NCBI GenBank assembly: GCA_934434555.1
Contig: CAKRZX010000002.1
Location: 22,376-86,375 of the forward strand
From: an uncultured Clostridia bacterium
Lineage (GTDB): Bacteria > Bacillota > Clostridia > Christensenellales > QALW01
Direction: 5' to 3'
DNA length: 64,000 nt
The notes below the pieces were generated by a model. It was not told the origin of the DNA. It made no database searches and saw only the letters and a list, made by a program, of their open reading frames with translations. This document shows, in pieces, positions 11,697 to 49,370 of this stretch. A program made the translations under genes and the position numbers. How positions within the stretch are numbered: position 1 is the stretch's first letter; each line of letters starts with the position of its first letter.

Positions 11697-13472
11697 TTAT
11701 TTTAAGAATTTTCTTCTGTAAACGGTTACCCCGGCAAGGGAAACGAGAACAACGCCCAGTGCAATATAAAGCACTGTCAAAGGTGCGTCGCCGGTATCTT
11801 CCTTATCAGAATCGCCCGAGGGAAGTTTTGCCGTTACAACCGAATCTTTTGTAATTTCTTTTTCAAGCGCGGAATCGGCAAAATATTTGCCGCAATCTTC
11901 ACAGAGCCAGTACTCAATATTGCCCTCTGCATTTACTGTGGCGGCTTTTGCGTCAACGTGCTTTATGCCGGTATGAGCGGGTTCGATTTCCGTTATATCG
12001 GTTTTTGCGTCACAAACTTCGCAGTGACGGGACTTTGAACCTTTCTCGGTACAAGTGGCGTCCTTATCAACCGTAAAGTTTTCTGAGTAGCGGTGCTCGG
12101 CTGCGGGAATCTCAGTAATGTTTGTCTTTGCGTCGCAGCGAGTGCAATGGTTTGACTTTGAGCCTTTTTCCGTGCAGGTGGGTTTGATGTCAACAACAAA
12201 ATTGCTGTCAAAATTGTGGGAGCCGTAATAATCGTTGCAGATGTTTTCAAGTACGGCAGAAGTCTTTATGCCTGAAATACTGTTTTTGTTTGTCTGCTCG
12301 TATACGGAACCTATTGCGCTTGTTTCGGCATTGAGTTCTGTGCTGAAAGAACAATCCGCGGTTGTACCGTAACAGTCAAATCCCACAAAACCTCCCGTAG
12401 CGCCTGCGCGTTCGCCCGTAACGGTTATTTTACCGGCAAAGTGACTGTTCTTTATTTCGCTGTCGCTGTCGTTAGTGCCTACAAAACCGCCCGCCTTTAA
12501 GGGGTCATAATTAAGCGTGCTTTTAACATCGCCCATTGCAACGCAGTTGCTTATGCTGCACTGCCACGCGTAACCTATAAATCCGCCAACGTGCCAGTTT
12601 CCGCCCGAAACCTTTGCATAGGAAATGCATTTTTCCATAACGCCGCCCGCATCGGAAGAGCCGGCAAAACCGCCTACGCTGTTATAACCCGAAACAGCAC
12701 CGTCCGAAGAGCAGTTTTTATATTTTCCTATAAAGTCACTGCCTACAAAACCGCCGGAGAAACCGCGACCGATAACGATAACGTCGGATTCACAGTTTTC
12801 GTAAACACCGTATGAGTTGCTGCCGACAAGACCGCCGCATTGGTTAGGCGAACTGCTGTCAGTTGTAACCGTGCCTTGAACTTTGCAGTTTTTTACCGTG
12901 ATTTCAAGTCCGTAACCCTCGCCGGCATTGCCGATAAGTATACCAACGCCGTCGTAGCGGTTAGGGTCGGGAAGAGTTGTCTGTTTTGAAGTCACATATG
13001 CGTTTGTTATGTTGATGTTCTGCAATGAAACCGTTCCTTTGGAAGAACCGCTGAAATTGCCGAAAAAGCCTGCGGCAAAACCGTCGCCGCTTTCGTCAAC
13101 ATAAAGGTTATCAATTGTGTAACCCTTGCCGTCAAAACAGCCGTTGAAACCGTTTGTTGAAGACTGAATTGTTCCCGTGCCGATAGGAATCCAACGGTGA
13201 CCTTTAAGGTCGATGTTGTTTGTTAAAACAAAATATTCACCGTTGTGGTTTCCCTTATAAATGCCCGAGTTTGCCTCCTTGGCGAGTTTTGCCAACTGTT
13301 CTGCCGTAGAAATACGGTAGGGGTCTGTTTCCGTGCCTGTTCCGCCCGCAAACTCCTTGGCGGCATAGTCGGTCCATATACCGTCCGCCTTGGGAGCAGC
13401 AGTAATAATGAAACACTGAAACGCGGAAATGCAAAGAGCCACAGCGGCGAGAATTGCTATCCGTTTTTTCAT
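11697..13472 (-). CDS. Cell-surface protein with GLUG-motif repeats, Cys-rich C-terminal repeats and a C-terminal TM anchor
   Basis: It has a signal peptide (MKKRIAILAAVALCISAF) and at least six GG(F/L)(V/A/I)G repeats (GGLVGSN, GGFVGSD, GGFAGSS, GGFIGYA, GGFVGTN, GGFVGFD). Two TCTEKGSKSxHCxxCDAKTxITEI modules and a terminal hydrophobic helix followed by RRK are also present. Confidence 0.75.
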   Translation of the reverse strand: MKKRIAILAAVALCISAFQCFIITAAPKADGIWTDYAAKEFAGGTGTETDPYRISTAEQLAKLAKEANSGIYKGNHNGEYFVLTNNIDLKGHRWIPIGTGTIQSSTNGFNGCFDGKGYTIDNLYVDESGDGFAAGFFGNFSGSSKGTVSLQNINITNAYVTSKQTTLPDPNRYDGVGILIGNAGEGYGLEITVKNCKVQGTVTTDSSSPNQCGGLVGSNSYGVYENCESDVIVIGRGFSGGFVGSDFIGKYKNCSSDGAVSGYNSVGGFAGSSDAGGVMEKCISYAKVSGGNWHVGGFIGYAWQCSISNCVAMGDVKSTLNYDPLKAGGFVGTNDSDSEIKNSHFAGKITVTGERAGATGGFVGFDCYGTTADCSFSTELNAETSAIGSVYEQTNKNSISGIKTSAVLENICNDYYGSHNFDSNFVVDIKPTCTEKGSKSNHCTRCDAKTNITEIPAAEHRYSENFTVDKDATCTEKGSKSRHCEVCDAKTDITEIEPAHTGIKHVDAKAATVNAEGNIEYWLCEDCGKYFADSALEKEITKDSVVTAKLPSGDSDKEDTGDAPLTVLYIALGVVLVSLAGVTVYRRKFLK

Positions 13473-13626: not shown

Positions 13627-14541
13627 ATGTTATCTGTTATTATTCCGGCGTACGATGAAAGCGAAGTGCTTGAAATCGGCGCAGTCAGAACGGGCAAGGC
13701 GCTTGAAAGCGCCGGCATAGACTATGAATTGATTTATATCGACGACGGCTCAACGGACGGAACGTGGGAGAAAATATGCGCGCTTCACGAAAACGACAGA
13801 CAGATAAAAGGCGTAAGATTTTCGCGTAATTTCGGAAAAGACGCCGCGATTTTTGCGGGTCTTAAACGGTGCAGGGGCGACTGCGTTGCCGTAATCGATG
13901 CCGATATGCAGCACCCGCCGGAGAAACTTGTTGAAATGTATCATCTGTGGGAGCAGGGGTTTGAGGTTGTCGAGGGCGTAAAGAGCAGCCGCGGAAAAGA
14001 AAGAAAACTGCACAAAGCGTGCGCGAATCTGTTCTATAAAATGATGTCGGCGGTGACAAGGCTTGATATGCGCAACGCGTCGGATTTTAAACTGCTTGAC
14101 CGCAAGGTGGTAAATGCGCTTATAAAAATGCCTGAGCACCGCATGTTTTTCAGGACGCTTTCCTCATGGGTGGGGTATAAATCCTGCACGGTAGCATACG
14201 ACGTTGAACAGCGGGCGGGCGGCGAGTCAAAATGGTCGACGTACAAACTTATGAAGTATGCAATGTCGTCGGTAACGAGTTTTACCGCGCGGCCCATGCA
14301 GATTGTAACCGGCTGCGGCGTCGTTGTATTCGCGATTTCGGTATTTGTGGGCATTTGGAGCCTTGTCGACAAGATTGTCGGCAGAGCCATTGAGGGAATG
14401 ACCACGGTAATATTCCTTTTGCTTTTCATCGGCAGCATTATTATGATGAGTTTGGGCATAATAGGCTATTACATTGCAAGAATTTACGAAGAAGTTCAGG
14501 CGCGCCCAAGGTATATAGTGGACGAGTTTTTGGACGGATAA
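13627..14541 (+). CDS. GT2 polyprenyl-phosphate glycosyltransferase (GtrB/ArnC-like)
   Basis: LSVIIPAYDE...YIDDGSTDGT...DADMQHPP is followed by two C-terminal TM helices, which is the GtrB-type architecture. Confidence 0.85.
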   Translation: MLSVIIPAYDESEVLEIGAVRTGKALESAGIDYELIYIDDGSTDGTWEKICALHENDRQIKGVRFSRNFGKDAAIFAGLKRCRGDCVAVIDADMQHPPEKLVEMYHLWEQGFEVVEGVKSSRGKERKLHKACANLFYKMMSAVTRLDMRNASDFKLLDRKVVNALIKMPEHRMFFRTLSSWVGYKSCTVAYDVEQRAGGESKWSTYKLMKYAMSSVTSFTARPMQIVTGCGVVVFAISVFVGIWSLVDKIVGRAIEGMTTVIFLLLFIGSIIMMSLGIIGYYIARIYEEVQARPRYIVDEFLDG

Positions 14542-14575: not shown

Positions 14576-14635
14576 CTGTTTTATTAACTTTTTGTGGAAA
14601 AATGCGGCGATGTCTACGAAAATCATAAAAATTAC

Positions 14636-14664
14636 TTGACATTCACCGATTTTTGGCGTATTAT
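14636..14664 (+). promoter_or_regulatory. Sigma-A-like promoter of the EPS operon leader
   Basis: The layout is TTGACA (14636-14641), a 17-nt spacer, then TATTAT (14659-14664). Confidence 0.5.
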
Positions 14665-14680
14665 AATGCTATATAATTTA

Positions 14681-14750
14681 ATAGGGGTAAACTCATTGAA
14701 AGATGAGGACACAAAGTCATTGTGCCTAAGGTTTATTACTACGGTTGACA
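14681..14750 (+). promoter_or_regulatory. c-di-GMP-I (GEMM-I) riboswitch-like aptamer
   Basis: The sequence ataGGGGTAAACTCATTGAAAGATGAGGACACAAAGTCattgtgCCTAAGgtttattacTACGGtTGAC parallels the Vibrio Vc2 aptamer as I recall it (GGGCAAACCATTCGAAAGAGTGGGACGCAAAGCC..CCTAAAC..). It has a 6-bp hairpin capped by a GAAA tetraloop. It also has the ACACAAAG junction and a near-canonical 11-nt tetraloop receptor (CCUAAG/UACGG) in the second hairpin. Confidence 0.7.
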
Positions 14751-14798
14751 GACTGCAATTTCTGCAAGGTTTTCTTGCACATATTGCAGTCTTTTTTT
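14751..14798 (+). terminator. Intrinsic terminator (riboswitch expression platform)
   Basis: The outer stem is GACTGCAAT...ATTGCAGTC and the inner stem is TGCAAG/CTTGCA, followed by T7. It directly abuts the aptamer. Confidence 0.8.
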
Positions 14799-14876
14799 AT
14801 TGCTTTGGGCGCAAAAATTTCGCAAAAAGAAGATTTCGGCAGTTTCAGCGCGGCTTGTGCGGGATTTTTGATTTCA

Positions 14877-15218
14877 ATGCTGCTGTTTTTGGGCGAGTTT
14901 GTGTTCGTTTCAAAAATGAAATGGCATCTCGGGTGCGATATGTATCTCTGCCTTATTCCGTGTGCGTACTTTCTCTTGAAAGCGGCACTTGCAGGCAAAA
15001 TACAAATTGCCGACGGCGGAATTTTAAGGCAGCACAGTTCGCTTATATATTTTGCCCATATGTTCTGTGCGGAAATCTGCTGGATTTTAACACCTGTTGA
15101 AAACGCAAATTCACTTGTTATGTTTTTGATTATATTTGCTCCTACGGTTTTGCCTGATACGGCAATAATCTTTGCGGCAAAGTCAAAAAGACTGAGTTTT
15201 ATAAAAAGGTTTTATTAA
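14877..15218 (+). CDS. Small hydrophobic ORF, possibly a remnant of an acyltransferase-3-type gene
   Basis: This is an in-frame M downstream of the terminator within track ORF 14745..15218. The C-terminal part (SLIYFAHMF...LIIFAPTVL) is membrane-like. There is no convincing RBS, so the call is weak. Confidence 0.3.
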   Translation: MLLFLGEFVFVSKMKWHLGCDMYLCLIPCAYFLLKAALAGKIQIADGGILRQHSSLIYFAHMFCAEICWILTPVENANSLVMFLIIFAPTVLPDTAIIFAAKSKRLSFIKRFY

Positions 15219-15230
15219 GAGGAAGAAAAG

Positions 15231-16745
15231 TTGGGCAAATACGCAAGAAAGATAAAATTCAATATCTTATCGGTAGTGCTTTGCCAAATTGTCACCGTAG
15301 CCGTGGGCTTTATCCTGCCGAGAATTTATATAGAAAACTTCGGTTCCGCGGTAAACGGAGTGCTTTCAACAATAAAGCAGATTTTTACCTACCTTTGCCT
15401 TTTGGAAGCGGGGGTGGGGCTGGCAACATCGCAGGCGCTGCTTAAACCCGTTGCCACGGGCGACAAAGATAAAATAAACAGCATTCTTGCCGCAACAAAA
15501 AAGCATTACACAAAAATCGGCATTATTTATTCTGCCTCTATTGTGCTTATCGGCGTTGTTTACGGATTCTTTGTAAATACGGGAATGAATCCTTTTACCG
15601 TTGTTGCGCTTGTTCTCTTAAACGGAATACCGTCGCTTATAACTTTCTTCATTCAGGGCAAGTATTGCATTTTGCTTGAAACCGACGGTATGCAGTATGT
15701 TATAACAAATTCGCAAACGGTTTTGCAGACCGTAAGCGGACTTCTTAAAGCGGCAGTACTGCTTTTGACAAACAATCTTATACTTATGCAGGCGTCATAT
15801 TGCCTTGTTGCGTCGGCGCAGCTTATCTATGTAACGCTTTACGCGCGGCGGCGCTATAAATGGCTTGATTTTTCGGTTTCTCCCGATTCAGGCGCAATAT
15901 CGCAAAAGAATTCCGTACTCGTGCACCAGATATCGGCAATGGTTTTCAATAATACCGACATTTTGCTTCTGTCGTTTTTAACCGATTTTTCAACGGTAAG
16001 TGTTTATTATATCTACAATCTGTTCTTTTCGCAGGTTGAAGCATTTACAAGCAGTGTTGTAAAGGGATTCAATTTCGCCTTGGGGCAGTTGTTCTCCGTT
16101 GACAGGCAAGCGTTTATAAAAAAGTTCAGGATTTATGAAAGCCTTTACGTTACCGCAAATTTTATCGTTTATACTTTGATGTGTGTTTTCCTTTTACCGG
16201 TGATACAGATTTATACCGGAGGAATAAACGACGCGAATTATATCAACCCTGCGCTTGTGCTTCTGTTTGCGGTTGCTAAAATGATTTCCGCGGCAAAGAT
16301 ACCCGTAAGTCAGATTATTGAGTATTCGGGAAGTTTTAACGCCACTAAGTGGCACGCCGTCTGCGAAATGATTATAAACCTGACTTTCACCGTCGGCGGA
16401 ATTTTTGCTTGGGGCATTTGCGGTGCTCTTGCCGGTACGGTTGCGGCAATAGCTTTCAGGTACTTTGCCGCCGTGGTTTTCGCAAACAAAAAAGTGCTTA
16501 TGCGTTCGGCAAAGGACAGTTTTTTACTTTTTGCCGTAAACGCAGCGGTTTTTTTGATTGTTTTTTTAGTGTTTAATACAACGCATTTTTGCAATCTGGG
16601 ATTTTGGAAACTTTGTCTTAACGGTGTGATTCATATGCTTTGGATAATACCGTTATACGTGCTTGCAAACTTTGTTCTGCGTCCCGACGTATATAAAAAT
16701 TTGATTTTAAGCCTGAAAGGCAGAAAAAATGAAAGAGATAATTAA
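15231..16745 (+). CDS. wzx: Polysaccharide flippase (Wzx, MOP superfamily)
   Basis: The 504-aa polytopic protein has a TTG start after aagagga, a typical Wzx length and profile, and an EPS locus context. Confidence 0.85.
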   Translation: MGKYARKIKFNILSVVLCQIVTVAVGFILPRIYIENFGSAVNGVLSTIKQIFTYLCLLEAGVGLATSQALLKPVATGDKDKINSILAATKKHYTKIGIIYSASIVLIGVVYGFFVNTGMNPFTVVALVLLNGIPSLITFFIQGKYCILLETDGMQYVITNSQTVLQTVSGLLKAAVLLLTNNLILMQASYCLVASAQLIYVTLYARRRYKWLDFSVSPDSGAISQKNSVLVHQISAMVFNNTDILLLSFLTDFSTVSVYYIYNLFFSQVEAFTSSVVKGFNFALGQLFSVDRQAFIKKFRIYESLYVTANFIVYTLMCVFLLPVIQIYTGGINDANYINPALVLLFAVAKMISAAKIPVSQIIEYSGSFNATKWHAVCEMIINLTFTVGGIFAWGICGALAGTVAAIAFRYFAAVVFANKKVLMRSAKDSFLLFAVNAAVFLIVFLVFNTTHFCNLGFWKLCLNGVIHMLWIIPLYVLANFVLRPDVYKNLILSLKGRKNERDN

Positions 16746-17259: not shown

Positions 17260-18000
17260 ATGAGCATACCGAAAGTGATTTATTATTGCTGGTACGGCAA
17301 AAATCCGTTGCCGAAATCGGTAAAAAAGTGCATGGAATCGTGGGAAAAGCAATGCCCGGAATATAAAATTGTCCGCATTGACGAAACGAATACCGATATT
17401 AACGAAAATGAATATGTTTCTCAGGCTTATTCCGCCGGCAAGTGGGCATTCGTAAGCGATTATTTCAGGCTTAAAGCAGTTTATGAGAACGGCGGAGTCT
17501 ATCTTGACACCGATGTTGAACTTATAAAAAGCCTTGATTGCCTGACGGAAAAATATGACGGCTTTTTCGGCTTTGAGCAGGGGAAAAATCTTATTGCCAC
17601 CGGGCTTGGGTTCGGGGCAAAAAAGAATAACAAATTCGTTAAGGCAATGCTTGATTCTTATGAAAACATTACGTTTTTTGATTCTTCCGGCAAAGCCGAC
17701 GAAACACCGTGTCCCGAAAGGAATACCGCTGCGCTTGTCAAAATGGGGGTTGACACGCAAAAGCGGAACCAGGTAATAGATAACGTTTGTTTCTTGAAAG
17801 AAGAAGTACTTTGCCCGATAAATTTTTTTACCGGCAAAAAGAAAATAACGAAAGACACGGTTTCCGTGCATCATTACGGCGCGTCCTGGTGCAGCGATGT
17901 CACAAGGCGCACGTTAAGGCTCAAAAAAATAATCGGAATTAAGAATTACAGCATTCTTTACGGGAAACTTCTTCATAAATCAAACAGGTGGGAATGGTAA
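17260..18000 (+). CDS. Glycosyltransferase, GT32-like (DXD)
   Basis: IYYCWYGKNPLP...WAFVSDYFRLKAVYENGGVYLDTDVE is a typical capsular GT32/OCH1-like signature. Confidence 0.8.
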   Translation: MSIPKVIYYCWYGKNPLPKSVKKCMESWEKQCPEYKIVRIDETNTDINENEYVSQAYSAGKWAFVSDYFRLKAVYENGGVYLDTDVELIKSLDCLTEKYDGFFGFEQGKNLIATGLGFGAKKNNKFVKAMLDSYENITFFDSSGKADETPCPERNTAALVKMGVDTQKRNQVIDNVCFLKEEVLCPINFFTGKKKITKDTVSVHHYGASWCSDVTRRTLRLKKIIGIKNYSILYGKLLHKSNRWEW

Positions 18001-18680
18001 TGCAGTATATCGATATCGAGAAAATCGATGGAAAGACCGCGAGCAGATTGGAGAGAATAATAGAAAAATCCTATGCTTCGTACTGGAAAAAGAAACGGGC
18101 GTTTGATATAATCGCCGCAACGCTTTTGCTTATTCCGCTTTTCGTGCCGATTTTGATTATGGCGCTGATTATATTTATTGACGACCCTCACGGAAATCCT
18201 TTTTATAAGCAGGTGCGTATCGGGCGTCACGGAGAGGAATTCTATATGTACAAGTTCCGTTCAATGCACGTTGACGCTGATAAACGCAAGAAAGAACTGC
18301 TTGATAAAAACGAAATGGACGGACCTGTTTTTAAGATAAAAAATGACCCGAGGGTTACAAGGGTGGGAAAAGTGATAAGAAAGTTTTCAATAGACGAACT
18401 GCCGCAGTTGTTTAATGTTTTTGCGGGTAATATGAGCCTTGTAGGACCGCGTCCGCCGCTTCCTGAGGAGGTGGAAAAGTACACCGATTATGATAAACTC
18501 CGCCTTATAGTTACTCCGGGGATAACCTGCACATGGCAGATCTCAAAAAACAGAAACGATGTTTCATACGAAAAATGGCTTGAAATGGACCTTGATTACA
18601 TAGAACACCGAACAACATGGGGAGACATAAAAATTATACTTAAAACTCCCATTGCAATGCTTGAAGCCACAGGGAGATAG
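18000..18680 (+). CDS. Initiating phosphoglycosyltransferase (bacterial sugar transferase, small monotopic PGT)
   Basis: FKFRSM...DGPVFKIKNDPRVTRVG..IDELPQLFNVFAGNMSLVGPRPP matches the family. I chose the ATG at 18000 (TAATG overlap, aggtggga RBS). GTG at 17988 and ATG at 17994 are alternatives. Confidence 0.9.
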   Translation: MQYIDIEKIDGKTASRLERIIEKSYASYWKKKRAFDIIAATLLLIPLFVPILIMALIIFIDDPHGNPFYKQVRIGRHGEEFYMYKFRSMHVDADKRKKELLDKNEMDGPVFKIKNDPRVTRVGKVIRKFSIDELPQLFNVFAGNMSLVGPRPPLPEEVEKYTDYDKLRLIVTPGITCTWQISKNRNDVSYEKWLEMDLDYIEHRTTWGDIKIILKTPIAMLEATGR

Positions 18681-18681
18681 A

Positions 18682-19812
18682 ATGAAAATATCAATGATAG
18701 GGCATAAGGCCGTGCCGTCAACAAGAGGCGGAATAGAAACGGTGCTTACAAACCTTTGCCCGATTTTAGTAAAAAAGGGAGCGGAAGTCGTATGCTTCAA
18801 CCGAAGTTCCGACCGCGCTGAACCGGAATTTATCAGTGAAATTAAGGACGGGAAATACAAAGACGTTACAATTAAGAAGGCGGGTACACTGAACATAAAC
18901 GGAGTTTCCGCGTTGCTTGCGTCCTTTTCGGCGGCATTTGCCTGCCTCTTTAATAAAAGCGACATAATACACTTTCACGCCGAGGGTCCGTCGGCAGCAA
19001 TATTTCTGCCGAAAATGTTCGGTAAAAAATGCGTTGCCACGGTTCACGGGCTTGACTGGCAGAGGGATAAGTGGAAAAACGGCTTGGGCGCAAAGTATAT
19101 TAAGTTCGGCGAAAAAATGATTGCAAAGCACGCCGACGGAATTATAGTTTTAAACCGCAGTACAAAAGATTATTTCAAAAAAACGTATAACCGTGATTCC
19201 GTAATTATTTATAACGGCGTGAATAATCCCGAAATAATTGACGATGATATAATTTCCGCAAAATTCGGACTGAAAAAGGACGGTTATATATGCGTTGTTG
19301 CAAGGCTTACCGAGGAAAAGGGAATCCTCTGCCTTATAGATGCATTTAAGGGAATAAAAACGGATAAAAAACTTGTTATCTGCGGCGAGGGAAACGGCGA
19401 TTACACGAAAAAATTGAAAAAGGCGGCAGAGGGAAATGAGAATATTATCTTTACCGGGTTCATTTCCGGAATAACGCTTGCGTCAATGTATTCAAGTGCG
19501 TATCTTGTCTGTCAGACGTCCAATATTGAGGGTATGTCAATAAGCCTTTTGGAGGCGCTTTCCTATTCAAATGCGGTGCTGTGTTCGGATATTCCGGAAA
19601 ATTCCGATGTGTGCGGCGGGAATGCCGTATATTTCCGAAAAAACGACAGCGGCGACTTAAAAGAAAAACTTGAAATGATGCTGAATAATAAAGATGTTGT
19701 TGAAAAACTCAGGCTTACTGCATCGGAAAGTGTTCTTTCAAGATTTTCCTGGGAAAAGAACGCCGAACAGACACTTGAATTCTATGAAAATATACTGAAA
19801 GGGGCAAATTGA
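18682..19812 (+). CDS. GT4 family glycosyltransferase
   Basis: MKISMIGHKAVPSTRGGIETV begins the protein, and an EX7E-type motif (EGMSISLLEALS) is present. The start was moved to 18682. Confidence 0.88.
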   Translation: MKISMIGHKAVPSTRGGIETVLTNLCPILVKKGAEVVCFNRSSDRAEPEFISEIKDGKYKDVTIKKAGTLNINGVSALLASFSAAFACLFNKSDIIHFHAEGPSAAIFLPKMFGKKCVATVHGLDWQRDKWKNGLGAKYIKFGEKMIAKHADGIIVLNRSTKDYFKKTYNRDSVIIYNGVNNPEIIDDDIISAKFGLKKDGYICVVARLTEEKGILCLIDAFKGIKTDKKLVICGEGNGDYTKKLKKAAEGNENIIFTGFISGITLASMYSSAYLVCQTSNIEGMSISLLEALSYSNAVLCSDIPENSDVCGGNAVYFRKNDSGDLKEKLEMMLNNKDVVEKLRLTASESVLSRFSWEKNAEQTLEFYENILKGAN

Positions 19813-21020
19813 ATATGAACGAAGTTTTCAGGCATATTTGCTTGCAGGCGGAAAAAACACTTTCAGCAGAAGAACTTGATTTGTTGAAAAATACGTTTAC
19901 GCTTATAAAATGTGACGGCAACCTGTTTGTGTTCGGATACAGGGACAAAGCCGCGTACAATGAATTTTTGGCAAAAAACAAGAATGCTTTGCGCAGCGCG
20001 TGCGGCGAGGTCTGCGGACAGATGCCCGATATAAGGTTCAGATTTTTGAAGAAAAAACGCGAAAGCGAAGATAAGCGTGAAAAGAACTGTAAAAAAGGTA
20101 TAAAAAATGTAGTTGCGTCGCTTATCTGCCTTGTACTTGCATTTGTTTTGGGTGTTATAAGCGTAAACTATATAGCAAACAGAAATTTTAAGGAAGATTT
20201 CTATTCCGTAAGCATAGCGCGGACGGCTGAAAATTTCAGGGTGATTCAACTTTCCGACCTGCACAACTGCTCTTACGGAACGGACAACAAAAATCTGCTT
20301 GACAGAATTACAAAACTCAGACCCGATATCATCGTTCTTACCGGCGACTGCCTTGACGAAAACGGCGATGTTGAACAGATTGTCCGCTTCTGCCGTGCTT
20401 TAAGGGAAATTGCTCCCGTGTATTATATTTACGGCAATAATGAGTGCAGACGGGCATTTTCATCGGTTATGACACTTGAAAGTCTTGATTCGCTTATAGA
20501 CGCAACGGACGAAAACAGAGATGTAAAAAAACTTTACGCTCTTGACAACGGCTTAAAAGCAACGCTTGAATCGAGCGGCATAAAGGTGCTGTTTAACGAA
20601 AGCGACAGCATTACGGTGGGAGAAAACAAAATCCGTATTTTCGGAACGCTCACGTCAAACCCGTCGGCATTCTGGCAGTATGCGGGAGCGGAATTCAGCA
20701 AATTCATAACGGAAAACAGCGATGAAATCAAACTGTTTCTATGCCACGAACCGCTGCTTATCGAAACGATAAAAGAGCCTTATTGGGGCGATTTGGTGCT
20801 TTCGGGCGATACTCACGGGGGAGAAGCGAGAATCCCCGGATTGGGCGCGGTGTATTCACGATCTTTCGGGTTTTTCCCCGAAAGAAGCAAGCATATGATA
20901 TACGGAAAATATACTTCCGGCGATTCACAGGTAATAGTAAGTTCGGGGCTTGAAAACAAAAACCCTTTAAGGATATTCAATCAGCCCGAAATAGCGATAA
21001 TCGACATTAACAAGTATTAA
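19809..21020 (+). CDS. Membrane-anchored calcineurin-like metallophosphoesterase with a DnaA-N-like N-terminal domain
   Basis: Phosphoesterase motifs are present: LSDLHN, LTGDCLDE, GNNE, LCHEP and SGDTHGG. A single TM (VVASLICLVLAFVLGVISV) lies in the middle. The roughly 80 N-terminal residues follow the DnaA domain I pattern. ATG at 19815 is an alternative start. Confidence 0.8.
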   Translation: MNMNEVFRHICLQAEKTLSAEELDLLKNTFTLIKCDGNLFVFGYRDKAAYNEFLAKNKNALRSACGEVCGQMPDIRFRFLKKKRESEDKREKNCKKGIKNVVASLICLVLAFVLGVISVNYIANRNFKEDFYSVSIARTAENFRVIQLSDLHNCSYGTDNKNLLDRITKLRPDIIVLTGDCLDENGDVEQIVRFCRALREIAPVYYIYGNNECRRAFSSVMTLESLDSLIDATDENRDVKKLYALDNGLKATLESSGIKVLFNESDSITVGENKIRIFGTLTSNPSAFWQYAGAEFSKFITENSDEIKLFLCHEPLLIETIKEPYWGDLVLSGDTHGGEARIPGLGAVYSRSFGFFPERSKHMIYGKYTSGDSQVIVSSGLENKNPLRIFNQPEIAIIDINKY

Positions 21021-21035: not shown

Positions 21036-22400
21036 TTGATACCACAGATAATTAAGGCGGCGGTGATTTTAGTATCGTTTTTTCTGTTTGCCCGGGCGGC
21101 GGTCGTTTTTTATAAAAAGTCGCGGCATCAAACGAAAAGTCAGACAAAAGCGGAATTAAAAAAGGTGAAAATCTTTTCTTTCGGCGCGTTCGTGTATGCA
21201 ATTATAATCTGTTTTTGTTTTACTCTTGCATCCTACTTTGATACCGCAAAACAGGCAAGCGCGGTTGTTGCGCTTAACTATGCCGAGGCTTCTTTGGGGC
21301 AGAACGTAAACGGAACAAGGTTCAATATGTCCGAAATAATCTCCGACGACGTTATGAAAAGAGTAATAAAAAAAGGCGGATTCGATGATTTGACCGTTGA
21401 CGACTTAAAAGAATGTTTCAGCGTTTCGGCACTGAATCAGGGCAATTCCTATTCAAAGGACAAGTATCATATTTCAACCGAGTTTGCGGTGCAGTATCAG
21501 GCAAGCAAAAAAACGAAAAAATATGATTCAAATGCGGTGGTGCAACTTCTGTGCAATTCTTACCGTGATTATTACTTTGACAATTACGTAAACGACTTTC
21601 AACTGCTTAACGATGAGCGGACGGCGGACGGGCTTGATTATATTGATGCCGCCGACCTTTTAAGCAAGCGCGCGAACAATATTCTGAACTATCTTTACGG
21701 ACTTCGGGAGAAAAATTCTGCGTTTATTTCATCAAACGGCTCAACGTTTGCTTCCGTTGCGGCAAAAGTCGAACTGCTTTCGTCGGCACAGATAAACGAT
21801 TCGGTTTATTCCTTTATTCTGCAAAACGGAATTTCAAAGGACAGCGAAAAACTTATCAGTCGGTATACGTATACGAATATTCTGTACGGGTACGACAAGC
21901 AGAAAGTGCAGCAGGCATACAGCATAACAAACAGTGCCGTTGCAAAGTACGATAAGGATATGGCGCGTATAGTGCTCGTTCCCACATGGGATAACGACGG
22001 GCAGTATTACATGGGACGCACGAAAATAGGAATTGATACTCTTTCGAAGCAGTCGGTTTCGTACAGCAATAGTATTGCGTCAATCGAAAAAAGCATAAAG
22101 GACAATGAACTGAAAATAGAAAAGTTCAAATCCGCGGCGGGCAACAGTGAAGAAAACAGGGAATATGTTGCGTCGCTTATATCGTCTGCGGAAAAGAGCC
22201 TCGAAGAATTGGCACACGAGGCGAGGGCAATAGGTCAGGAATACTATTCAAGTCAGATGAACGAATGTATTTCCGCAGCCGTTTATCAGGGAACATTGTT
22301 TTCAAAAGCAAAAGTGTTAGCGCTTGTTACGGTATTGGCGTACATTGCATTTTGGGCAAAAAAGTCGTCGGAGAAATTCGGCGCTCACGAAGAGGACTAA
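21036..22400 (+). CDS. Polysaccharide co-polymerase (Wzz/PCP)-like membrane protein
   Basis: TM segments sit at both ends and flank a region of about 350 aa. The N-proximal stretch (ASAVVALNYAEASLGQNVNGTRFNMSEIISDDVMKRVI) is paralogous to the same region of the next gene. TTG start after ggagg. Confidence 0.55.
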   Translation: MIPQIIKAAVILVSFFLFARAAVVFYKKSRHQTKSQTKAELKKVKIFSFGAFVYAIIICFCFTLASYFDTAKQASAVVALNYAEASLGQNVNGTRFNMSEIISDDVMKRVIKKGGFDDLTVDDLKECFSVSALNQGNSYSKDKYHISTEFAVQYQASKKTKKYDSNAVVQLLCNSYRDYYFDNYVNDFQLLNDERTADGLDYIDAADLLSKRANNILNYLYGLREKNSAFISSNGSTFASVAAKVELLSSAQINDSVYSFILQNGISKDSEKLISRYTYTNILYGYDKQKVQQAYSITNSAVAKYDKDMARIVLVPTWDNDGQYYMGRTKIGIDTLSKQSVSYSNSIASIEKSIKDNELKIEKFKSAAGNSEENREYVASLISSAEKSLEELAHEARAIGQEYYSSQMNECISAAVYQGTLFSKAKVLALVTVLAYIAFWAKKSSEKFGAHEED

Positions 22401-22412
22401 GGAGGTGCTTCC

Positions 22413-24293
22413 GTGGAAGAGAAAAATGTTTTTGGGCTTATAAAAAAACTGCTCCCGTATGTAGTGGTGCTTGCTTTGATTCTTACCGCTTTTATCGGGG
22501 CTGCTTTAAGAAAACAGCAGAAATATATTGCGTCGGCGGTAATAAGTTATAATTTCAAATCCGCCGAGGAAGGTAAGACACCCGCGGGAACGGATTTGGA
22601 CGTGAATGAAATAAAGTCGTCGGCAATATTGAGTAAGGCGATAGAAAAACTTTCGCTTTCAGCCGAATATTCGGCAGATAAACTTTCGTCACGAATAAGC
22701 ATTACACCCGTGCCCGACCCCGACAAAGAGGCACAGAAGAAGGCAAAACTTGAAGAGGGCGAAGAATATGTCTATGTCCCTTCAACGTATATTGTTGCTT
22801 TTGCCGCAACAAGCAGAGAAGGCAGCCGTTTTGCACAAAGTATGCTTGATGAGATACTTGACGCCTATTTTTCGATTTTCGGAGAAAACAACATAAATGT
22901 TGAGCACATAAGCAATAACATTAAGGAAATCTACAATAACGATTACGATTATCTGCGTATGGTGGAACATATCGATGACAATATCGAAAACACCGTAAAT
23001 ATGCTCTATCAGCGCGACAGTGCATATCCGTACTACCGTTCCACCGAAACGGGAATGTCTTTCGGGGATATTATCGGCCGCTTTGAATTTATAAGAAACG
23101 TGAACCTTAAAGACCTGTATTCCGAAATATACGATTATCAGATAACAAAAAGCAAAAGCCTGCTTAACGCATACTACGATACGAGAATAGACAACAACAG
23201 GATAACCGGCTCGAATGAAATGAAGATGTTCGATGACATCGAAGAAGTTATTGATGCTTATGTGTTCAAAATGCGTGAATCGGGAAACACGAACATAACG
23301 TACGAGTATATCATGAAAGAAGTCCACAACAAGGATATTACCGACGGCAAGGGGAATATTATAACGAAGGTTGACCAGACCGTAACGTACGATGAACTTC
23401 TTTATGCGTGGCGCGATCACGATCTTAATGATGCATATGCAACCGTTGATACCGCCTATTGCAGGTATGTGCTGGATTCTTTCAATTCCTGCACCGGCGC
23501 GTGTGAAAACGGCGAATGCGGACATTCTGATAAAACCTGTGTGCAGCTTTCCGACCCGGAATATTCCGGGAGAGAAAAAGATGCAGAAGAAAAACTTGAA
23601 GCCATAGTGGAAGAACTGAATGTCCTTTACGATAAAACCGTTACGGCAAACAGCGAGTATAACGGATATTTGGGCTGTAAGAATATTTCGATTCTTTCTT
23701 CACCGTCAACAAACGAAAGCATAAACGTAACGCTTTACAGCATTATAGCCTTTGTATTCATAATGGTTATCTGCTGCGGCGGACTTATTCTCATAGGCAG
23801 AATGAATGATATTGTTATTGCAAACTTCTATGTTGACAAGCGCACAGGATTCTATAACAGGGCGTATTTTGACAAATTCCTGCAAAAGAAGAGCAGGAGC
23901 ATTATTGACGACGGCACGGTCATAGTTTCGGTTTCCATAAAGAATCAGCGTGAGATAAACAAAGAATTCGGGCGAAGTGCGGGCGATGAAGTTATCGAAC
24001 TGTTTGCGCAGAACCTGAAAACGGCTTTCTCAAAGATGAACGCAATGTTTGTTTATAACGAAAACACGCACTTTATTTTGGTAATAGACAAAACAGATTC
24101 CATTACCGCAGAGGACGCTGTGCAGACTTTCGCGGTGTATATCGAGAACAGGGAATCGTCGGAAAACGTTGATATTAAATATTCCGTTGGCGTTGCCGAA
24201 ACGTTCAGGGAAAAGATAAAATCGGCAAGGGCACTGCTTGTTGAAGCCATAAAGAACAGCAAGGATTTTGAGGCGCTGCCGAAAGCAAAATAA
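22413..24293 (+). CDS. Wzz/PCP-like co-polymerase fused to a C-terminal degenerate GGDEF domain
   Basis: The order is TM1 (LLPYVVVLALILTAFIGAAL), a Wzz-like segment (ASAVISYNFKS..GTDLDVNEIKSSAILSKAIEKLSL), a long external region with CTGACENGECGHSDKTC, then TM2 (LYSIIAFVFIMVICCGGLILIG). A GGDEF fold follows (DKRTGFYNRAYF..INKEFGRSAGDEVI). Its GG(D/E)EF position reads NENTH, its I-site position reads SKMN and its DxD position reads SVSIK. Confidence 0.75.
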   Translation: MEEKNVFGLIKKLLPYVVVLALILTAFIGAALRKQQKYIASAVISYNFKSAEEGKTPAGTDLDVNEIKSSAILSKAIEKLSLSAEYSADKLSSRISITPVPDPDKEAQKKAKLEEGEEYVYVPSTYIVAFAATSREGSRFAQSMLDEILDAYFSIFGENNINVEHISNNIKEIYNNDYDYLRMVEHIDDNIENTVNMLYQRDSAYPYYRSTETGMSFGDIIGRFEFIRNVNLKDLYSEIYDYQITKSKSLLNAYYDTRIDNNRITGSNEMKMFDDIEEVIDAYVFKMRESGNTNITYEYIMKEVHNKDITDGKGNIITKVDQTVTYDELLYAWRDHDLNDAYATVDTAYCRYVLDSFNSCTGACENGECGHSDKTCVQLSDPEYSGREKDAEEKLEAIVEELNVLYDKTVTANSEYNGYLGCKNISILSSPSTNESINVTLYSIIAFVFIMVICCGGLILIGRMNDIVIANFYVDKRTGFYNRAYFDKFLQKKSRSIIDDGTVIVSVSIKNQREINKEFGRSAGDEVIELFAQNLKTAFSKMNAMFVYNENTHFILVIDKTDSITAEDAVQTFAVYIENRESSENVDIKYSVGVAETFREKIKSARALLVEAIKNSKDFEALPKAK

Positions 24294-24308: not shown

Positions 24309-25574
24309 GTGAAAAAGGGGATAGACGCGGTAATAAAAACATACTTTCTTTCCGTTATGTTTTTAATGTACTATTTCATAACCCAGGAAACTTCCGTTGG
24401 CGGTATAGGCATTACTCTGCGTCACGTTTTTGCCCTTTTGCTTATTGTTTCGGCATTCGTGTACTTTCTCTTTTCACCGGATATTGCACGGGGGGCGGTT
24501 ACGGTAAAATCTTCACTTGTATTCGCCGTGCCGCTGGCGATAACGCTTGTTTCGTCAATGCTTGTGTGGGTAATTGAAAAAAGCGCCGCATCAACTATTG
24601 CCCGCGGACTTTCAAGCAGCATAATTTATATGAATGTTTTTTCCTGCTCGCTGGCGGCGGGAAGCGTGCTGTATGTGTTCGGTGAGGACGGAATCTGGTT
24701 CAACCTTGCCGCGATAGTTGCGTCAAACCTTGTTATGATTTTTCAGATTATACTTTCCGACGGCGCGGGCACGTTTTTTTTGGAATTTGTCCGCCTTGTG
24801 GCAACTTTTGCGTCCGACACGGGCGAGACGATAGTAAAGGCTGAAATTCACGAACTTGCTTTCTGTCTGGGGGCGTATATAATTTATATGCTTCTGAAAC
24901 CCAAAAAGAAAGTGTGGTTCTGGGTGCTTTTTGCGTTAGCCTGTTTCTGCTTTGTTGCGGCGTTAAAGCGTATTGCGGTAATTGCAATTTTCGCGGCGAT
25001 CTCAATAAGACTTCTGCTTTTGCTCCCGGGAATAATCTCACAAAAGGCGGTGTCGCGCACGGCAAACGGAATGATGATTCTGTGCATTCTGCTGCTTGTG
25101 GGCTATATCTATATAATAAGCGCCGATGCGTTTACCTATCTTGAAAAAGCGGGCATAGATACAAGCGGGCGGGCGAATATATATTCTTACGTAAAAGACT
25201 TCTACACCTTTTCGCCCCTCTTTCCGGGACGGGGAATAGGATTTTTAACATATCAACTTTATGAAAAGACGTCAATCGGTGTGTCATCGGTGCATAACGA
25301 CTTTTTGCAGTTCTATATCGATTTGGGCTTTTGGGGATATATTCTTTGGCTGATTTCAATGACTTTTCTGCGCACAATGTATTTCGGTAAAAACGACGCC
25401 GATACCGCGGCTGTTACGGCGGCGCTTACCGTATATCTGTTAATAGTTTCAAGTACCGATAATACTATGAATTATCCGCTTGTTACTACCGTTATGGGCG
25501 TTTTGATTATGGGCAACGGATTCGGTAAAAAGGTTGAGGCACAGCAAAAATATTTTGAAAGCCGACCCGTATAA
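24309..25574 (+). CDS. wzy: O-antigen/EPS polymerase (Wzy, O-antigen ligase family)
   Basis: The 421-aa polytopic protein has the Wzy_C-like stretch SSVHNDFLQFYIDLGFWGYILWL. GTG start after gggaggg. Confidence 0.8.
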   Translation: MKKGIDAVIKTYFLSVMFLMYYFITQETSVGGIGITLRHVFALLLIVSAFVYFLFSPDIARGAVTVKSSLVFAVPLAITLVSSMLVWVIEKSAASTIARGLSSSIIYMNVFSCSLAAGSVLYVFGEDGIWFNLAAIVASNLVMIFQIILSDGAGTFFLEFVRLVATFASDTGETIVKAEIHELAFCLGAYIIYMLLKPKKKVWFWVLFALACFCFVAALKRIAVIAIFAAISIRLLLLLPGIISQKAVSRTANGMMILCILLLVGYIYIISADAFTYLEKAGIDTSGRANIYSYVKDFYTFSPLFPGRGIGFLTYQLYEKTSIGVSSVHNDFLQFYIDLGFWGYILWLISMTFLRTMYFGKNDADTAAVTAALTVYLLIVSSTDNTMNYPLVTTVMGVLIMGNGFGKKVEAQQKYFESRPV

Positions 25575-29856: not shown

Positions 29857-31224
29857 ATGAACGAAAACTATATTTTAATAATTTTTATAATTGTGTTCTT
29901 TGCACTGTTTGCATTCGGGCTTATGTTTATTTCCCGTGCGCTGAAACAGTTCAACGGCAAAAAACGTGCGGGATTTGAGCCGCTTCTGTACGTTCAGCGG
30001 CGGTACGACAAAATCCGCAAAATATCGAGAATACCTTGCGGCGTGCTTTACATTACGGCAGGCAACGGCGATATGGAGAAAGTTTCACGCAATGAAAGCG
30101 GACTTTTTGAGCACCTCGGCGAAACTCTGCTTGCGTCCTTTGACGGCAAAGACGACCTGGTTTCAAAGATAAATTCAAAAGAATACGTCGTGCTTACAAG
30201 AATGAGCGAACCGCAGATGAACAGCGTTACCAAACAGATACTGCACGATACGGTGCTGTATTCAAAAGCGAATCCCGACGTGCCGGGCATAAAAATAAGT
30301 TTCGGAGCTTATCTTATTCCGGCAAGCAACGTGGATTTTGACGAAACGGTTGCCCGCGCAAAACTTGCCTGTATTGAATCAAAAAACAGTTCAAGGACGT
30401 ACGTTGCGTGGGATTATAATCTTCAATGCGATTACGATAACCGAGTAATGATAGAAAAAAATCTTAAAAACGGGATTGAAAACAACAACTTCTTCCTTGA
30501 ATTTCAGCCGATAATCGATATCGTAAGCGGGAACATCACCGGCGGAGAGGTGCTTTCAAGGCTTAACGGGGAATCAAAAGTGCTTCTGCCCGCAGACTTC
30601 ATTTCCGTTGTAAAAGACAAGAATATGGATTTTGAATTTGACTGCTACGTGTTTGAAAAGACCTGTCAGTGGGTTTCGGCACACCCCGAGCCCTGCGGAT
30701 TTTTAGACCACGTTTCGGTAAACTTTTCGCGCAGCACTCTTGCAACAAAGGACGCGGCGGAAAAACTGCTTGCAATAGCCGGCGGCTACGGCATTGACAG
30801 GACGTTTATCGCCATAGAGGTGCTTGAAGACGAAAGCGGCGGCTCTTTTAACACGGAAAACATCCGCGAGAACATGAAGATAATAAAGGAGGCGGGAATG
30901 ACCGTATTGCTTGACGATTTCGGCGACGGCTATTCTTCCTTTGACGACCTTAAAAATTTCCCTGCGGACATAATAAAAATAAGCAAATCCGTTACGGAAA
31001 ATATCGAAACGCAGTTGGGCGAAAGAATCTTCAAAAGCATTGCAACCATGGCGAAAAGTATGAAAGTCCAGGTTATCTGCGAGGGGGTGGAAACGCTTGA
31101 ACAGATAGAAATTCTGCGAAAAAACGGGATAAGATTCGTGCAGGGGTACTATTTCTTCCGCCCGCAAAGTCCCAACCAGTTTGAAAAGGCAGTATTAAAT
31201 AACAGAACAAGGAGAGTACAATAA
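29857..31224 (+). CDS. Membrane-anchored degenerate-GGDEF / EAL domain protein (putative c-di-GMP phosphodiesterase)
   Basis: It has an N-terminal TM (ILIIFIIVFFALFAFGLMFI) and a GGDEF-like fold with NSKEY at the GGDEF position. The EAL domain keeps the core motifs EFQPII..GGEVLSR, SVNFS, AIEVLEDE, DDFGDGYSS, IIKISKS, EGVETLEQ and QGYYFFRP. Confidence 0.85.
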   Translation: MNENYILIIFIIVFFALFAFGLMFISRALKQFNGKKRAGFEPLLYVQRRYDKIRKISRIPCGVLYITAGNGDMEKVSRNESGLFEHLGETLLASFDGKDDLVSKINSKEYVVLTRMSEPQMNSVTKQILHDTVLYSKANPDVPGIKISFGAYLIPASNVDFDETVARAKLACIESKNSSRTYVAWDYNLQCDYDNRVMIEKNLKNGIENNNFFLEFQPIIDIVSGNITGGEVLSRLNGESKVLLPADFISVVKDKNMDFEFDCYVFEKTCQWVSAHPEPCGFLDHVSVNFSRSTLATKDAAEKLLAIAGGYGIDRTFIAIEVLEDESGGSFNTENIRENMKIIKEAGMTVLLDDFGDGYSSFDDLKNFPADIIKISKSVTENIETQLGERIFKSIATMAKSMKVQVICEGVETLEQIEILRKNGIRFVQGYYFFRPQSPNQFEKAVLNNRTRRVQ

Positions 31225-31225
31225 T

Positions 31226-31870
31226 ATGAAAGTAAGTTTGTTTGGCTATAACCGTAAGGAAACGGACGATTATTTTAACTATCTTAACGAAAACAACAAT
31301 ACGCAGGCGGGAGAGATAAAGCGTCTGAGTGCCGAACTTGAAGCGGCGAAAAGGGAAGTTGAGGAATATAAACAACTTGATGAACTGAATAAGCGCGAGA
31401 TAGAAAGCCTGAAAGACAGAATCTGCGACTGCAAACTTGACGAAGACGAGCATAAAAAGCAGATAGACGAACTTTCGCGCCGTTTAAGCGAGAAAAAGGG
31501 TGCAGATGAAACCGAGAAACTTGGTATAATTTTCGCCGTTGCTTACAGGGACATAGAAAACAAGAACAAGGCGGTAAGCGAAAAAATAAGAGCTTATGCC
31601 GATATGATGTTTGACCGTATGAACCGCTACCGTGATGAAGTGGGCAAGATAGTGGATTCGGTTACATATATGCAGAACAGGCAGAAAGAAGAACTTGCAC
31701 GGCTCTGCGCGGAAGCGACCGAAAAACTTGATTTGCTTACAAAGGCTTCAAACAATACGGTTGAAGATATGAAAAAGATAGAGGAGAGCCGCGGAAACAT
31801 CTGCGGTGAAATAGAAAATATGCTCAGGGAAACCGCTAACACCGCGGTTTTGGAGGAAAAGAACCTTTAA
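31226..31870 (+). CDS. Coiled-coil protein with a DivIVA-like N-terminal motif
   Basis: The N-terminal LFGYNRKETDDYFNYL resembles the DivIVA/GpsB F..GY...EVD.FL motif. The rest is heptad-rich. Confidence 0.5.
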   Translation: MKVSLFGYNRKETDDYFNYLNENNNTQAGEIKRLSAELEAAKREVEEYKQLDELNKREIESLKDRICDCKLDEDEHKKQIDELSRRLSEKKGADETEKLGIIFAVAYRDIENKNKAVSEKIRAYADMMFDRMNRYRDEVGKIVDSVTYMQNRQKEELARLCAEATEKLDLLTKASNNTVEDMKKIEESRGNICGEIENMLRETANTAVLEEKNL

Positions 31871-47607: not shown

Positions 47608-47617
47608 GGAGGACAAA

Positions 47618-49120: not shown

Positions 49121-49145
49121 AACACGGAAAATAAAATATTTTGAA

Positions 49146-49300
49146 AGATACGGTTTGAAAAGTTGTACGCTGAGTAGATGTAAAAGGAAATTCGGTTTGA
49201 ATCCGAAACAACCGCCATTACTGTATTTGACGATTAGGGGATTACTCTCTTTTTTAGGGGAGGTTCCGTGTTCATAAGTCAGGATACCTGCCTATCTTTC
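49146..49300 (+). promoter_or_regulatory. Cobalamin riboswitch aptamer
   Basis: The core is AAAAGGAAAttCGGTttGAATCCGaaaCAaCCGCCattACTGTA (49181-49224). The B12-box AGTCAGGATACCTGCC lies at 49276-49291. Confidence 0.8.
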
Positions 49301-49370
49301 GGACAAACACTGCTTTGGTGTGAAGAGTGCTGCCGCTTTTTTGCTCTTTGCCGCGCAGAATAAGTTGCAG

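Follow-up and report, generated by a model that had tools for sequence, protein, structure and literature searches.

Wzy-dependent polysaccharide loci of Firmicutes usually pair a polysaccharide co-polymerase (PCP; CpsC or Wzd) with a bacterial tyrosine kinase (BY-kinase; CpsD or Wze) and the phosphatase CpsB. The outer loops of such PCP-2b proteins are short. Degenerate GGDEF domains act as receptors for cyclic di-GMP (c-di-GMP) in YdaK and PssE, and in Caulobacter PdeA (CC3396) a dead GGDEF domain that keeps its base contacts serves as a GTP sensor beside an EAL activity. PelD and BcsE are likewise degenerate-GGDEF c-di-GMP receptors of exopolysaccharide (EPS) machines (PMC8461298). The same 2021 review describes post-translational c-di-GMP control of EPS machines for the synthase-dependent cellulose, alginate and Pel systems only, and its text makes no mention of Wzx or Wzy (PMC8461298). 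Wzx/Wzy-dependent systems are thought to be under the control of BY-kinase cycles or, as recently proposed, of pseudokinase scaffolds; in the phosphorylation-independent PCP-2 system EpsV-EcpK of Myxococcus xanthus, a BY pseudokinase is the proposed scaffold (PMC12004946). Here we analyse a 64-kb stretch of DNA from an uncultured Clostridia bacterium (contig CAKRZX010000002.1; hereafter the window), in which a PCP-type protein fused to a degenerate GGDEF domain (dGGDEF) is encoded in a Wzy-type EPS operon.

The fusion protein, the long PCP (22413-24293, + strand; identified with Pfam, NCBIfam, hydrophobicity, AlphaFold2 (AF2) and Foldseek), has 626 residues. A hydrophobicity scan finds hydrophobic segments at residues ~5-35 and ~435-470, and the AF2 model places transmembrane (TM) helices at 2-35 and 439-462 (TM1 22449-22511, TM2 23727-23807). 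Between the two TM helices lies an outer domain of ~400 residues, PCP-like and predicted to be extracytoplasmic (residues 36-438; 22518-23726, + strand; AF2, Foldseek and Pfam scans of homologues). The full-length model, calculated with 40 homologues as input (mean pLDDT 80.6), consists of a TM helix, a small alpha/beta base, several helices of 25-40 residues, a beta strand leading to the base, and the second TM helix. Residues 1-470 were modelled apart (pLDDT 79.3), as the top 50 Foldseek matches of the full-length model were all GGDEF domains. This second model shows the alpha/beta base with long antiparallel helices. In a Foldseek search of the PDB, its ranks 1-8 are all E. coli Wzc (E 2.8e-5 to 5e-3, probability 0.96-1.0), followed by the PCP-3 protein KpsE, and every significant match is a PCP. 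The two-TM Wzz/PCP topology proposed for this open reading frame (ORF) in an initial annotation of the window thus agrees with both the hydrophobic segments and the fold matches.

A HMMER search with residues 1-470 against 1.84 billion cluster representatives returned 626 relatives at E<=1e-3. Pfam scans of 80 homologues of the N-terminal domain gave Wzz in 23 (best 3.1e-8) and GGDEF in 40; family members scanned singly have Wzz scores slightly below the 25.5-bit cut-off. Around TM2 the protein reads SSPS...CCGGLILIG, with G462 invariant and G456/G457 nearly so, and the canonical PX2PX4SPK spacing is not seen. Because of the topology, the predicted fold and the Wzz matches in homologues, assignment of the N-terminal part as a PCP-type membrane protein is supported.

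Two results speak against this assignment. Pfam finds no Wzz match (PF02706) to the 626-residue protein itself, even at E<=1; of the two Pfam matches anticipated by the initial annotation, only GGDEF (PF00990, residues 473-612) was obtained. Foldseek TM-scores to Wzc are low (~0.22), so that the likeness is one of fold class; low values are expected when long flexible helices are modelled as a monomer. Together with a profile of the short-paralogue family (see below), which retrieves from the PDB designed coiled coils only and no PCP, these results would also suit some other two-TM coiled-coil protein that is not a co-polymerase, with an ordinary degenerate GGDEF signalling protein standing in an EPS operon by chance. 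This reading is very unlikely in our view, given that the significant Foldseek matches are all PCPs, that Wzz is recognised in the homologues counted above, and that a Wzy_C gene adjoins in nearly all loci examined. NCBIfam likewise yields no Wzz match for either the 454-residue short paralogue or the 626-residue protein, PF02706 does not match the short paralogue at E<=1, and a sequence search of the PDB with the 626-residue protein returns GGDEF domains only and no PCP.

Four cysteines of the ectodomain (C360, C364, C369 and C376; CTGACENGECGHSDKTC; residues 360-376, 23490-23540) are invariant in the close clade. They lie in an insertion at the ectodomain tip that the wider family does not have. 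In an anaerobe, such residues on an extracellular loop could pair in disulfides or bind a metal.

Directly upstream lies the short PCP (21036-22400, + strand; 454 residues; identified by hhalign, BLASTP and gene order), a paralogue that has no cytoplasmic domain. It follows the gene of a metallophosphoesterase (19809-21020), and the three ORFs are all on the + strand with gaps of 12-15 nt. The short and long proteins match in BLASTP with E 3e-8, and hhalign aligns the 454-residue protein with the 626-residue family over the whole TM1-to-TM2 span (probability 99.6, E 8.6e-24, 379 columns), which settles in its favour the earlier suggestion of a paralogous PCP-like gene at this place. The short PCP is found directly upstream of the long PCP in every locus reaching that far, and in one homologue, P0199, a short-type and a long-type PCP are joined in a tandem fusion. 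The hhalign result, the invariant adjacency and the tandem fusion indicate that short and long PCP work together, and the fusion in particular speaks for a single complex containing both paralogues.

The cytoplasmic C-terminus of the long PCP (residues 473-612; 23829-24248, + strand; Pfam, NCBIfam, HMMER, Foldseek and family alignment) is recognised by PF00990 (E 3e-13, 50.3 bits, cut-off 23.8) and by TIGR00254 (40.1 bits, cut-off 37.4). In the AF2 model it starts ~10 helical residues past TM2 and has a pLDDT of ~87-90. Foldseek matches the full model to diguanylate cyclases only, DgcR being the best (6zxb; E 2.4e-7, probability 1.0), and the probability for dGGDEF is 1.0 against each of DgcR, PleD and WspR. 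Motif registers were taken from a HMMER alignment to DgcR and a MAFFT alignment of the family. The GGEEF of DgcR aligns with ENTHF (residues 550-554; 24060-24074, + strand), the RxxD position of the I-site is SKMN (residues 540-543; 24030-24041, + strand), and the Asp-x-Asp metal site is occupied by S508-I-K510 (SIK; 23934-23942, + strand). No Asp is found at the position of PleD D327. The equivalents of PleD N335 and D344, which contact guanine, are retained as N516 and D525 (G524-D525). The initial annotation had described a GGDEF-fold domain that lost its catalytic, I-site and metal motifs and kept the guanine-contacting pair, and all of this is borne out; only its placing of the GG(D/E)EF position at NENTH was one residue off. 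Given these motif losses, the domain is incapable of making c-di-GMP, and it has no canonical c-di-GMP inhibitory site.

The degenerate state is shared by the family. Residue counts were made across 75 representatives that carry the domain and are 20-45% identical to the 626-residue query. GGDEF itself never occurs among them; the position nearly always reads YNG[SG]GQF, within the family signature DxxTxLPNR ... INxxxGRxxGD ... YNG[SG]GQF. The YN hairpin is well kept (Y in 63/75, N in 70/75), as are D475 (69/75), N482 (73/75), R483 (67/75), R521 (59/75) and R606 (66/75). The guanine-contact N is present in 55/75 and the D in 60/75, with N in its place in another 13, and the first metal site has no Asp in any of the 75.

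Loss of every catalytic motif could mean that the domain is a functionless, decaying remnant. The dN/dS of dGGDEF is ~0.08-0.10 against the closest orthologues, dS being near saturation, and the all-pairs identity of the domain follows that of the ectodomain (0.57 vs 0.64 in a close set, 0.28 vs 0.31 in a wide set). The family-specific motif is retained at 20-45% overall identity, and the domain persists as a separate gene in one locus (L015, see below). These observations make decay exceedingly improbable and indicate that dGGDEF is a stable variant of the GGDEF fold under purifying selection.

The family comprises 626 clusters at 50% identity and carries no name in the collections searched. 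Close homologues (48-99% identity) are all ~625 residues long, match PF00990 only and come from human-gut metagenomes; a scan of genome contigs gave four close relatives only, in metagenome-assembled genomes (MAGs) of uncultured Ruminococcaceae/Eubacteriales. The size of the family and its occurrence in human-gut metagenomes and MAGs give it a bearing on surface-polysaccharide production by abundant uncultured commensals. The I-site-free YNG[SG]GQF variant of the GGDEF fold may represent a new mode of ligand binding or interaction in a very common domain.

We annotated the gene contexts of ten further loci, with flanks of up to 10 kb and some contigs ending sooner. They share a core of a short PCP, a long PCP and nearby Wzy and Metallophos genes. 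dGGDEF is fused to the PCP in 75 of 121 full-length representatives of the family. In L015 it is split off: the order there is GT4::Metallophos, short PCP, a long-type PCP that has no C-terminal domain, a stand-alone dGGDEF of 149 residues (HNGSGVF) and Wzy, with PAS-GGDEF-EAL and PAS-GGDEF genes immediately upstream. The frequent fusion, and the separate gene directly after the PCP in L015, indicate that dGGDEF belongs functionally to the PCP. In two other members (P0236 and P0261) an EAL domain replaces dGGDEF and the gene order is unchanged. The EAL domain of P0236 has DNFGEV where DDFGTG is expected, and the PCP::EAL variants keep most catalytic residues. By these domain assignments, the cytoplasmic position on the long PCP repeatedly holds a domain of the c-di-GMP family, fused or split.

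The long PCP lies in a single + strand EPS operon at ~15.2-34.2 kb of the window, as delineated by Pfam on plausible ORFs of at least 150 residues. Its first part encodes a 504-residue multi-TM protein, a hexapeptide acyltransferase, a glycosyltransferase, the phosphoglycosyl transferase (PGT) Bac_transf, a GT4 glycosyltransferase and the metallophosphoesterase; the two PCPs are followed by Wzy_C, GT4, three GT2 glycosyltransferases, an EAL protein, a 214-residue coiled-coil protein, a GtrII-like protein and YdjC. Both the initiating PGT (17988-18680, + strand; PF02397 E 2.4e-65) and the Wzy-type polymerase, encoded directly after the long PCP (24309-25574, + strand; PF04932 E 1.1e-10), are thus in the operon. 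A Wzy_C gene stands within two genes of the long PCP in 9/10 related loci, and in L017 a 425-residue gene product that has no Pfam match takes the Wzy position.

In the same Pfam scans of the 64-kb window (plausible ORFs of at least 150 residues) we found no P-loop family of the BY-kinase type, no PHP phosphatase and no low-molecular-weight protein tyrosine phosphatase (LMW-PTP). No BY-kinase was found in the related loci L005-L012 and L014-L017 either, with flanks of up to 10 kb and some contigs shorter, and the same scans gave no PHP or LMW-PTP phosphatase. The lack of a BY-kinase and a PHP phosphatase, noted for this operon by the initial annotation, therefore holds across the window ORFs scanned and the ten related loci, and the co-occurrence of the fusion with absence of Wze/CpsD that it had proposed to look for is seen in those loci. 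The operon encodes one phosphoesterase only, a calcineurin-type enzyme with a predicted outward orientation.

Several elements of c-di-GMP signalling recur in the locus. At the head of the operon, a promoter-like site (TTGACA-17-TATTAT; 14636-14664, + strand), which matches the consensus at 11/12 positions and is assigned by consensus match only, lies directly upstream of a c-di-GMP-I riboswitch aptamer (RF01051; 14676-14760, + strand; 59.9 bits against a gathering score of 35, full-length). An intrinsic terminator, a hairpin followed by U7 (14750-14799, + strand; minimum free energy -22.1 kcal/mol, z = -5.2 vs shuffles), overlaps the 3' end of the aptamer with its 5' arm. This overlap suggests that the riboswitch is an ON switch, in which ligand binding would prevent termination. 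A c-di-GMP-I riboswitch also heads orthologous loci (L002, 2022-2105; L005, 1316-1401; L008/L009, 1564-1647). In L010 a further copy (11864-11925) comes after the PCP::EAL locus, at the contig's 3' end. A 168-residue ORF (14594-15100) that covers the promoter and riboswitch was rejected as spurious.

The EAL gene of the operon (29857-31224, + strand; PF00563 E 8e-55) encodes a TM-anchored protein with an N-terminal GGDEF remnant. In an alignment to MorA (4rnh) from residue 92 onwards, the EVL, N, ExxE, DDFGxGYSS, K, EGVE and QG motifs are all kept, and the protein is probably an active phosphodiesterase. The gene is conserved in L005, L008 and L009, and an ORF of the same size occupies its place in L001 and L002. 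At the GGDEF position of the remnant the protein has NSKEY, visible only through the MorA alignment. We considered the remnant as a specific paralogue of the dGGDEF of the PCP and rejected this, finding no similarity between them. In the clade of 64% identity represented by L008/L009, the EAL gene is followed by a gene for a 465-residue membrane protein (18911-20308) with canonical DVDNFKRIND and LGGDEF motifs. This cyclase has TEKD at its RxxD position; in the window, the gene of the 214-residue coiled-coil protein takes its place. Read from the genes and RNA elements of these loci, the link to c-di-GMP at the level of the locus is strong.

These findings raise the possibility of control at two levels. 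c-di-GMP would turn the operon on at the RNA level through the riboswitch. At the protein level, the pseudo-cyclase domain would take the place held by the BY-kinase domain in Wzc or CpsC-CpsD and act as a cytoplasmic association module beneath a mixed oligomer of short and long PCPs, its association state deciding whether the PCP ring supports Wzy polymerisation. Neighbouring dGGDEF domains would pair in a ligand-gated manner. A guanine nucleotide, with c-di-GMP as the likeliest, would bind as ligand at the remnant half-pocket of the active site (N516, R521, D525 and the YN hairpin) rather than at the I-site. By lowering the local signal, the EAL enzyme of the operon would reset the system, and the metallophosphoesterase would belong to the same machine and act outside the cell. 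We favour ligand gating because the base-contact residues survive despite the loss of phosphate and metal ligands and because an EAL domain can substitute for dGGDEF; gating by a guanine nucleotide at the half-pocket remnant stays tentative, with chances that we place somewhat short of even. Control of the locus by c-di-GMP signalling has far more support than was available to the initial annotation, from the riboswitch, the EAL gene of the operon, the cyclase of the relatives and the PCP::EAL variants.

A number of observations weigh against ligand gating. The metal Asp is gone from dGGDEF, and the domain stops where the canonical AKxxGRN phosphate-binding helix would be, so that the C-terminal Lys/Arg motif appears lost. 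RxxD is never found across the 75 members: its Arg position has no R among the six most frequent residues, and its Asp position has D in 9/75. The characterised c-di-GMP receptors of the GGDEF type that the review names all use the I-site (PMC8461298). The retained N and D may be structural, the riboswitch alone could be sufficient for c-di-GMP dependence, and the distant loci L012, L016 and L017 have neither a c-di-GMP enzyme nor a riboswitch in the flanks retrieved. The main alternative, in keeping with the family-wide loss of I-site, metal and phosphate ligands and with some loci being free of nearby c-di-GMP genes, is that dGGDEF is a ligand-independent scaffold, a nucleotide-free dead cyclase. 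Through protein-protein contact it would keep the PCP oligomer assembled or bring in cytoplasmic partners, for instance glycosyltransferases, the PGT or the EAL protein. In that case the conserved YNG hairpin may serve as an interface, and a pseudo-enzyme as PCP partner has a precedent in EcpK for EpsV (PMC12004946). A bare scaffold accounts less readily for the two guanine-contact positions, retained in 73-80% of members, for the EAL domain that replaces the module in some members, and for the recurrence of c-di-GMP elements around the locus; we regard it as possible, though on the unlikely side.

A second alternative reverses the direction of the signal. The usual layout of a c-di-GMP signalling protein is an outer domain between two TM helices with GGDEF or EAL behind it, and the long PCP has this layout. 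Its PCP-like ectodomain might report the status of the polymer or of assembly, and dGGDEF might modulate the EAL enzyme and thereby c-di-GMP and riboswitch-controlled transcription. This would be a feedback loop, not control of polymerisation, and the 454-residue paralogue would be the working co-polymerase. The retention of most catalytic residues in the PCP::EAL variants is in keeping with such an outside-in sensor, as is the operon of the window, which unites the riboswitch, dGGDEF and an EAL protein that itself has a GGDEF remnant. Yet dGGDEF is dead in all members and would need a partner, L012, L016 and L017 have no EAL or GGDEF gene nearby, and there is no specific similarity between the dGGDEF of the PCP and the GGDEF remnant of the EAL protein. 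Both the sensor and the feedback loop it implies seem improbable to us.

Returning to ligand gating, the full proposal would define a new class of PCP in Clostridia, in which a second messenger, be it c-di-GMP or some other guanine nucleotide, at a non-canonical, I-site-independent site of a pseudo-cyclase, rather than tyrosine phosphorylation, gates Wzy. Riboswitch and phosphodiesterase would add a two-level RNA/protein circuit, and an extracellular metallophosphoesterase would be a further new component. We consider this combination conceivable and, taken as a whole, rather doubtful.

The metallophosphoesterase (19809-21020, + strand; PF00149 E 1.3e-10, hydrophobicity scan) has 403 residues and one TM helix at ~96-125, in line with the membrane metallophosphoesterase originally noted upstream of both PCPs. 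It keeps the DxH and GD motifs, and its NCBIfam matches to YaeI and LpxG are far under the cut-offs. A Lys/Arg cluster precedes the TM helix. In the fusion P0204 (PCP::dGGDEF::TM::Metallophos), the added TM helix puts the phosphoesterase across the membrane from dGGDEF. From the charge distribution around the TM helix and this fusion, the catalytic domain is probably extracytoplasmic. P0204 and the fusion to GT4 in L015 tie the enzyme to the PCP module. An outward-facing enzyme is not an analogue of CpsB, and on the predicted topology we rejected both a cytoplasmic substitute for CpsB and a hydrolase of c-di-GMP or pGpG. The initial annotation had placed the trio of phosphoesterase, PCP and PCP::GGDEF in the CpsB-C-D slot; the PCP with a dead GGDEF domain in a Wzy operon that has no kinase or phosphatase fits that view, but the phosphoesterase as the CpsB equivalent does not. 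We speculate, from the distant similarity to LpxG and YaeI, that its substrate might be the polymer or carrier, at the undecaprenyl-pyrophosphate end.

The enzyme shows some variation across the family. In the clade of the window, GNNE and GDTHGG stand in place of the canonical GNHE and GHxHGG of distant members, and the enzyme carries an extra cytoplasmic N-terminal extension of ~95 residues and an insertion of ~25 residues.

No ORF of the window matches a flippase family. The 504-residue multi-TM protein, the first intact gene of the operon (15231-16745, + strand; hydrophobicity scan), is a candidate. It has ~12 hydrophobic segments and is conserved as the first gene in orthologous operons. 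Pfam returns nothing for it at E<=0.5, and BLAST shows no similarity between it and a recognisable Wzx, the Polysacc_synt protein encoded in L010. A divergent flippase is a possible identity. In L008 the riboswitch is directly followed by an Acyl_transf_3 gene, and the ORF 14745-15218 (157 residues), upstream of the 504-residue gene in the window, reads like what remains of its hydrophobic C-terminus. By this reading, the ORF would be a truncated acyltransferase gene in the leader. Near the other end of the operon, the 214-residue coiled-coil protein (31226-31870, + strand; N-terminus FGYNRKETDDYF) shows a weak likeness to DivIVA (PF05103 E 0.019, below threshold), and ORFs of the same size follow the EAL gene in L001 and L002.

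Outside the operon, a separate GT2 gene (13627-14541) lies upstream of the riboswitch promoter and is directly followed by a hairpin and T-run. A gene divergent from the EPS region and immediately upstream of it (11697-13472, - strand) encodes a 590-residue GLUG-motif protein. Further downstream, genes at 44769-49045 (+ strand) encode an [FeFe]-hydrogenase-like protein with a PAS domain, of the sensory hydrogenase type, a SpoIIE-family phosphatase and a second hydrogenase large subunit, a putative H2-sensing regulatory unit. They are followed by a cobalamin riboswitch (50.1 bits; 49133-49309, + strand) upstream of a cluster encoding DUF4430, a prenyltransferase-like protein, CbiQ, an ABC ATPase and an ECF S-component, which is probably a corrinoid uptake locus.

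In the literature collection searched, which is incomplete, we found no PCP-GGDEF or PCP-EAL fusion, no c-di-GMP control of a PCP and no c-di-GMP binding by a PCP or BY-kinase; the earlier remark that no characterised PCP-GGDEF fusion is known stands within that scope. A PCP with a c-di-GMP-family domain in the kinase position would join two fields, c-di-GMP control of synthase-dependent systems and the control of Wzx/Wzy systems. It could also explain how polymerisation is controlled in the many Firmicute EPS loci devoid of a CpsD-type kinase.

Wzc of the E. coli K30 and colanic acid systems (PCP-2a) is the best structural match to the long PCP. Both span the membrane with two TM helices around a large helical outer domain, end in a cytoplasmic regulatory domain on the same chain and have a Wzy partner. 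Wzc ends in a P-loop BY-kinase with a Tyr cluster, whereas the long PCP ends in a GGDEF-derived domain; in addition, the locus described here has no phosphatase, includes a second PCP paralogue devoid of a cytoplasmic domain, and is not expected to have a Wza/outer-membrane polysaccharide export (OPX) protein in its presumed Gram-positive host. With CpsC/CpsD (Wzd/Wze) and CpsB (PCP-2b) the locus shares a Firmicute EPS or capsule operon with Wzy, in which the PCP and its regulatory module are adjacent and early. It differs in that no CpsD-type kinase or PHP phosphatase was found in the scans described above, in the calcineurin type and predicted outward orientation of the neighbouring phosphoesterase, and in the size of the outer domain (~400 residues). 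EpsV-EcpK offers a catalytically dead enzyme fold as the cytoplasmic module of a PCP; there the fold is that of a P-loop kinase and the protein is separate, while here it is GGDEF, fused, and set amid c-di-GMP signalling.

PelD, BcsE, YdaK and PssE share with the long PCP a membrane-associated dead GGDEF domain encoded in an EPS operon and placed for post-translational regulation of the polymer. They belong to synthase-dependent systems and bind c-di-GMP through RxxD; here the pathway is of the Wzy type, the domain is fused to a PCP, and SKMN stands at the I-site, which also sets it apart from PopA among the RxxD-type receptors. In PdeA the ligands for phosphate and metal are retained and the GGDEF domain is joined to EAL, whereas here these ligands are lost and the EAL protein is separate. 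Alg44, the PilZ-containing 'co-polymerase' of alginate, is comparable as a membrane protein that aids polymerisation and carries a c-di-GMP-related module (PMC8461298). In contrast to the long PCP, its module is PilZ and not GGDEF, its system is synthase-dependent, and it is unrelated to Wzz-type PCPs. As far as its motifs tell, the long PCP lacks the defining traits of these groups, having no BY-kinase as in PCP-2, no RxxD as in the receptors and no cyclase motif. Overall, it is most like a PCP-2 protein in which the kinase has been replaced, combined with the degenerate-GGDEF receptors of synthase-dependent EPS systems.

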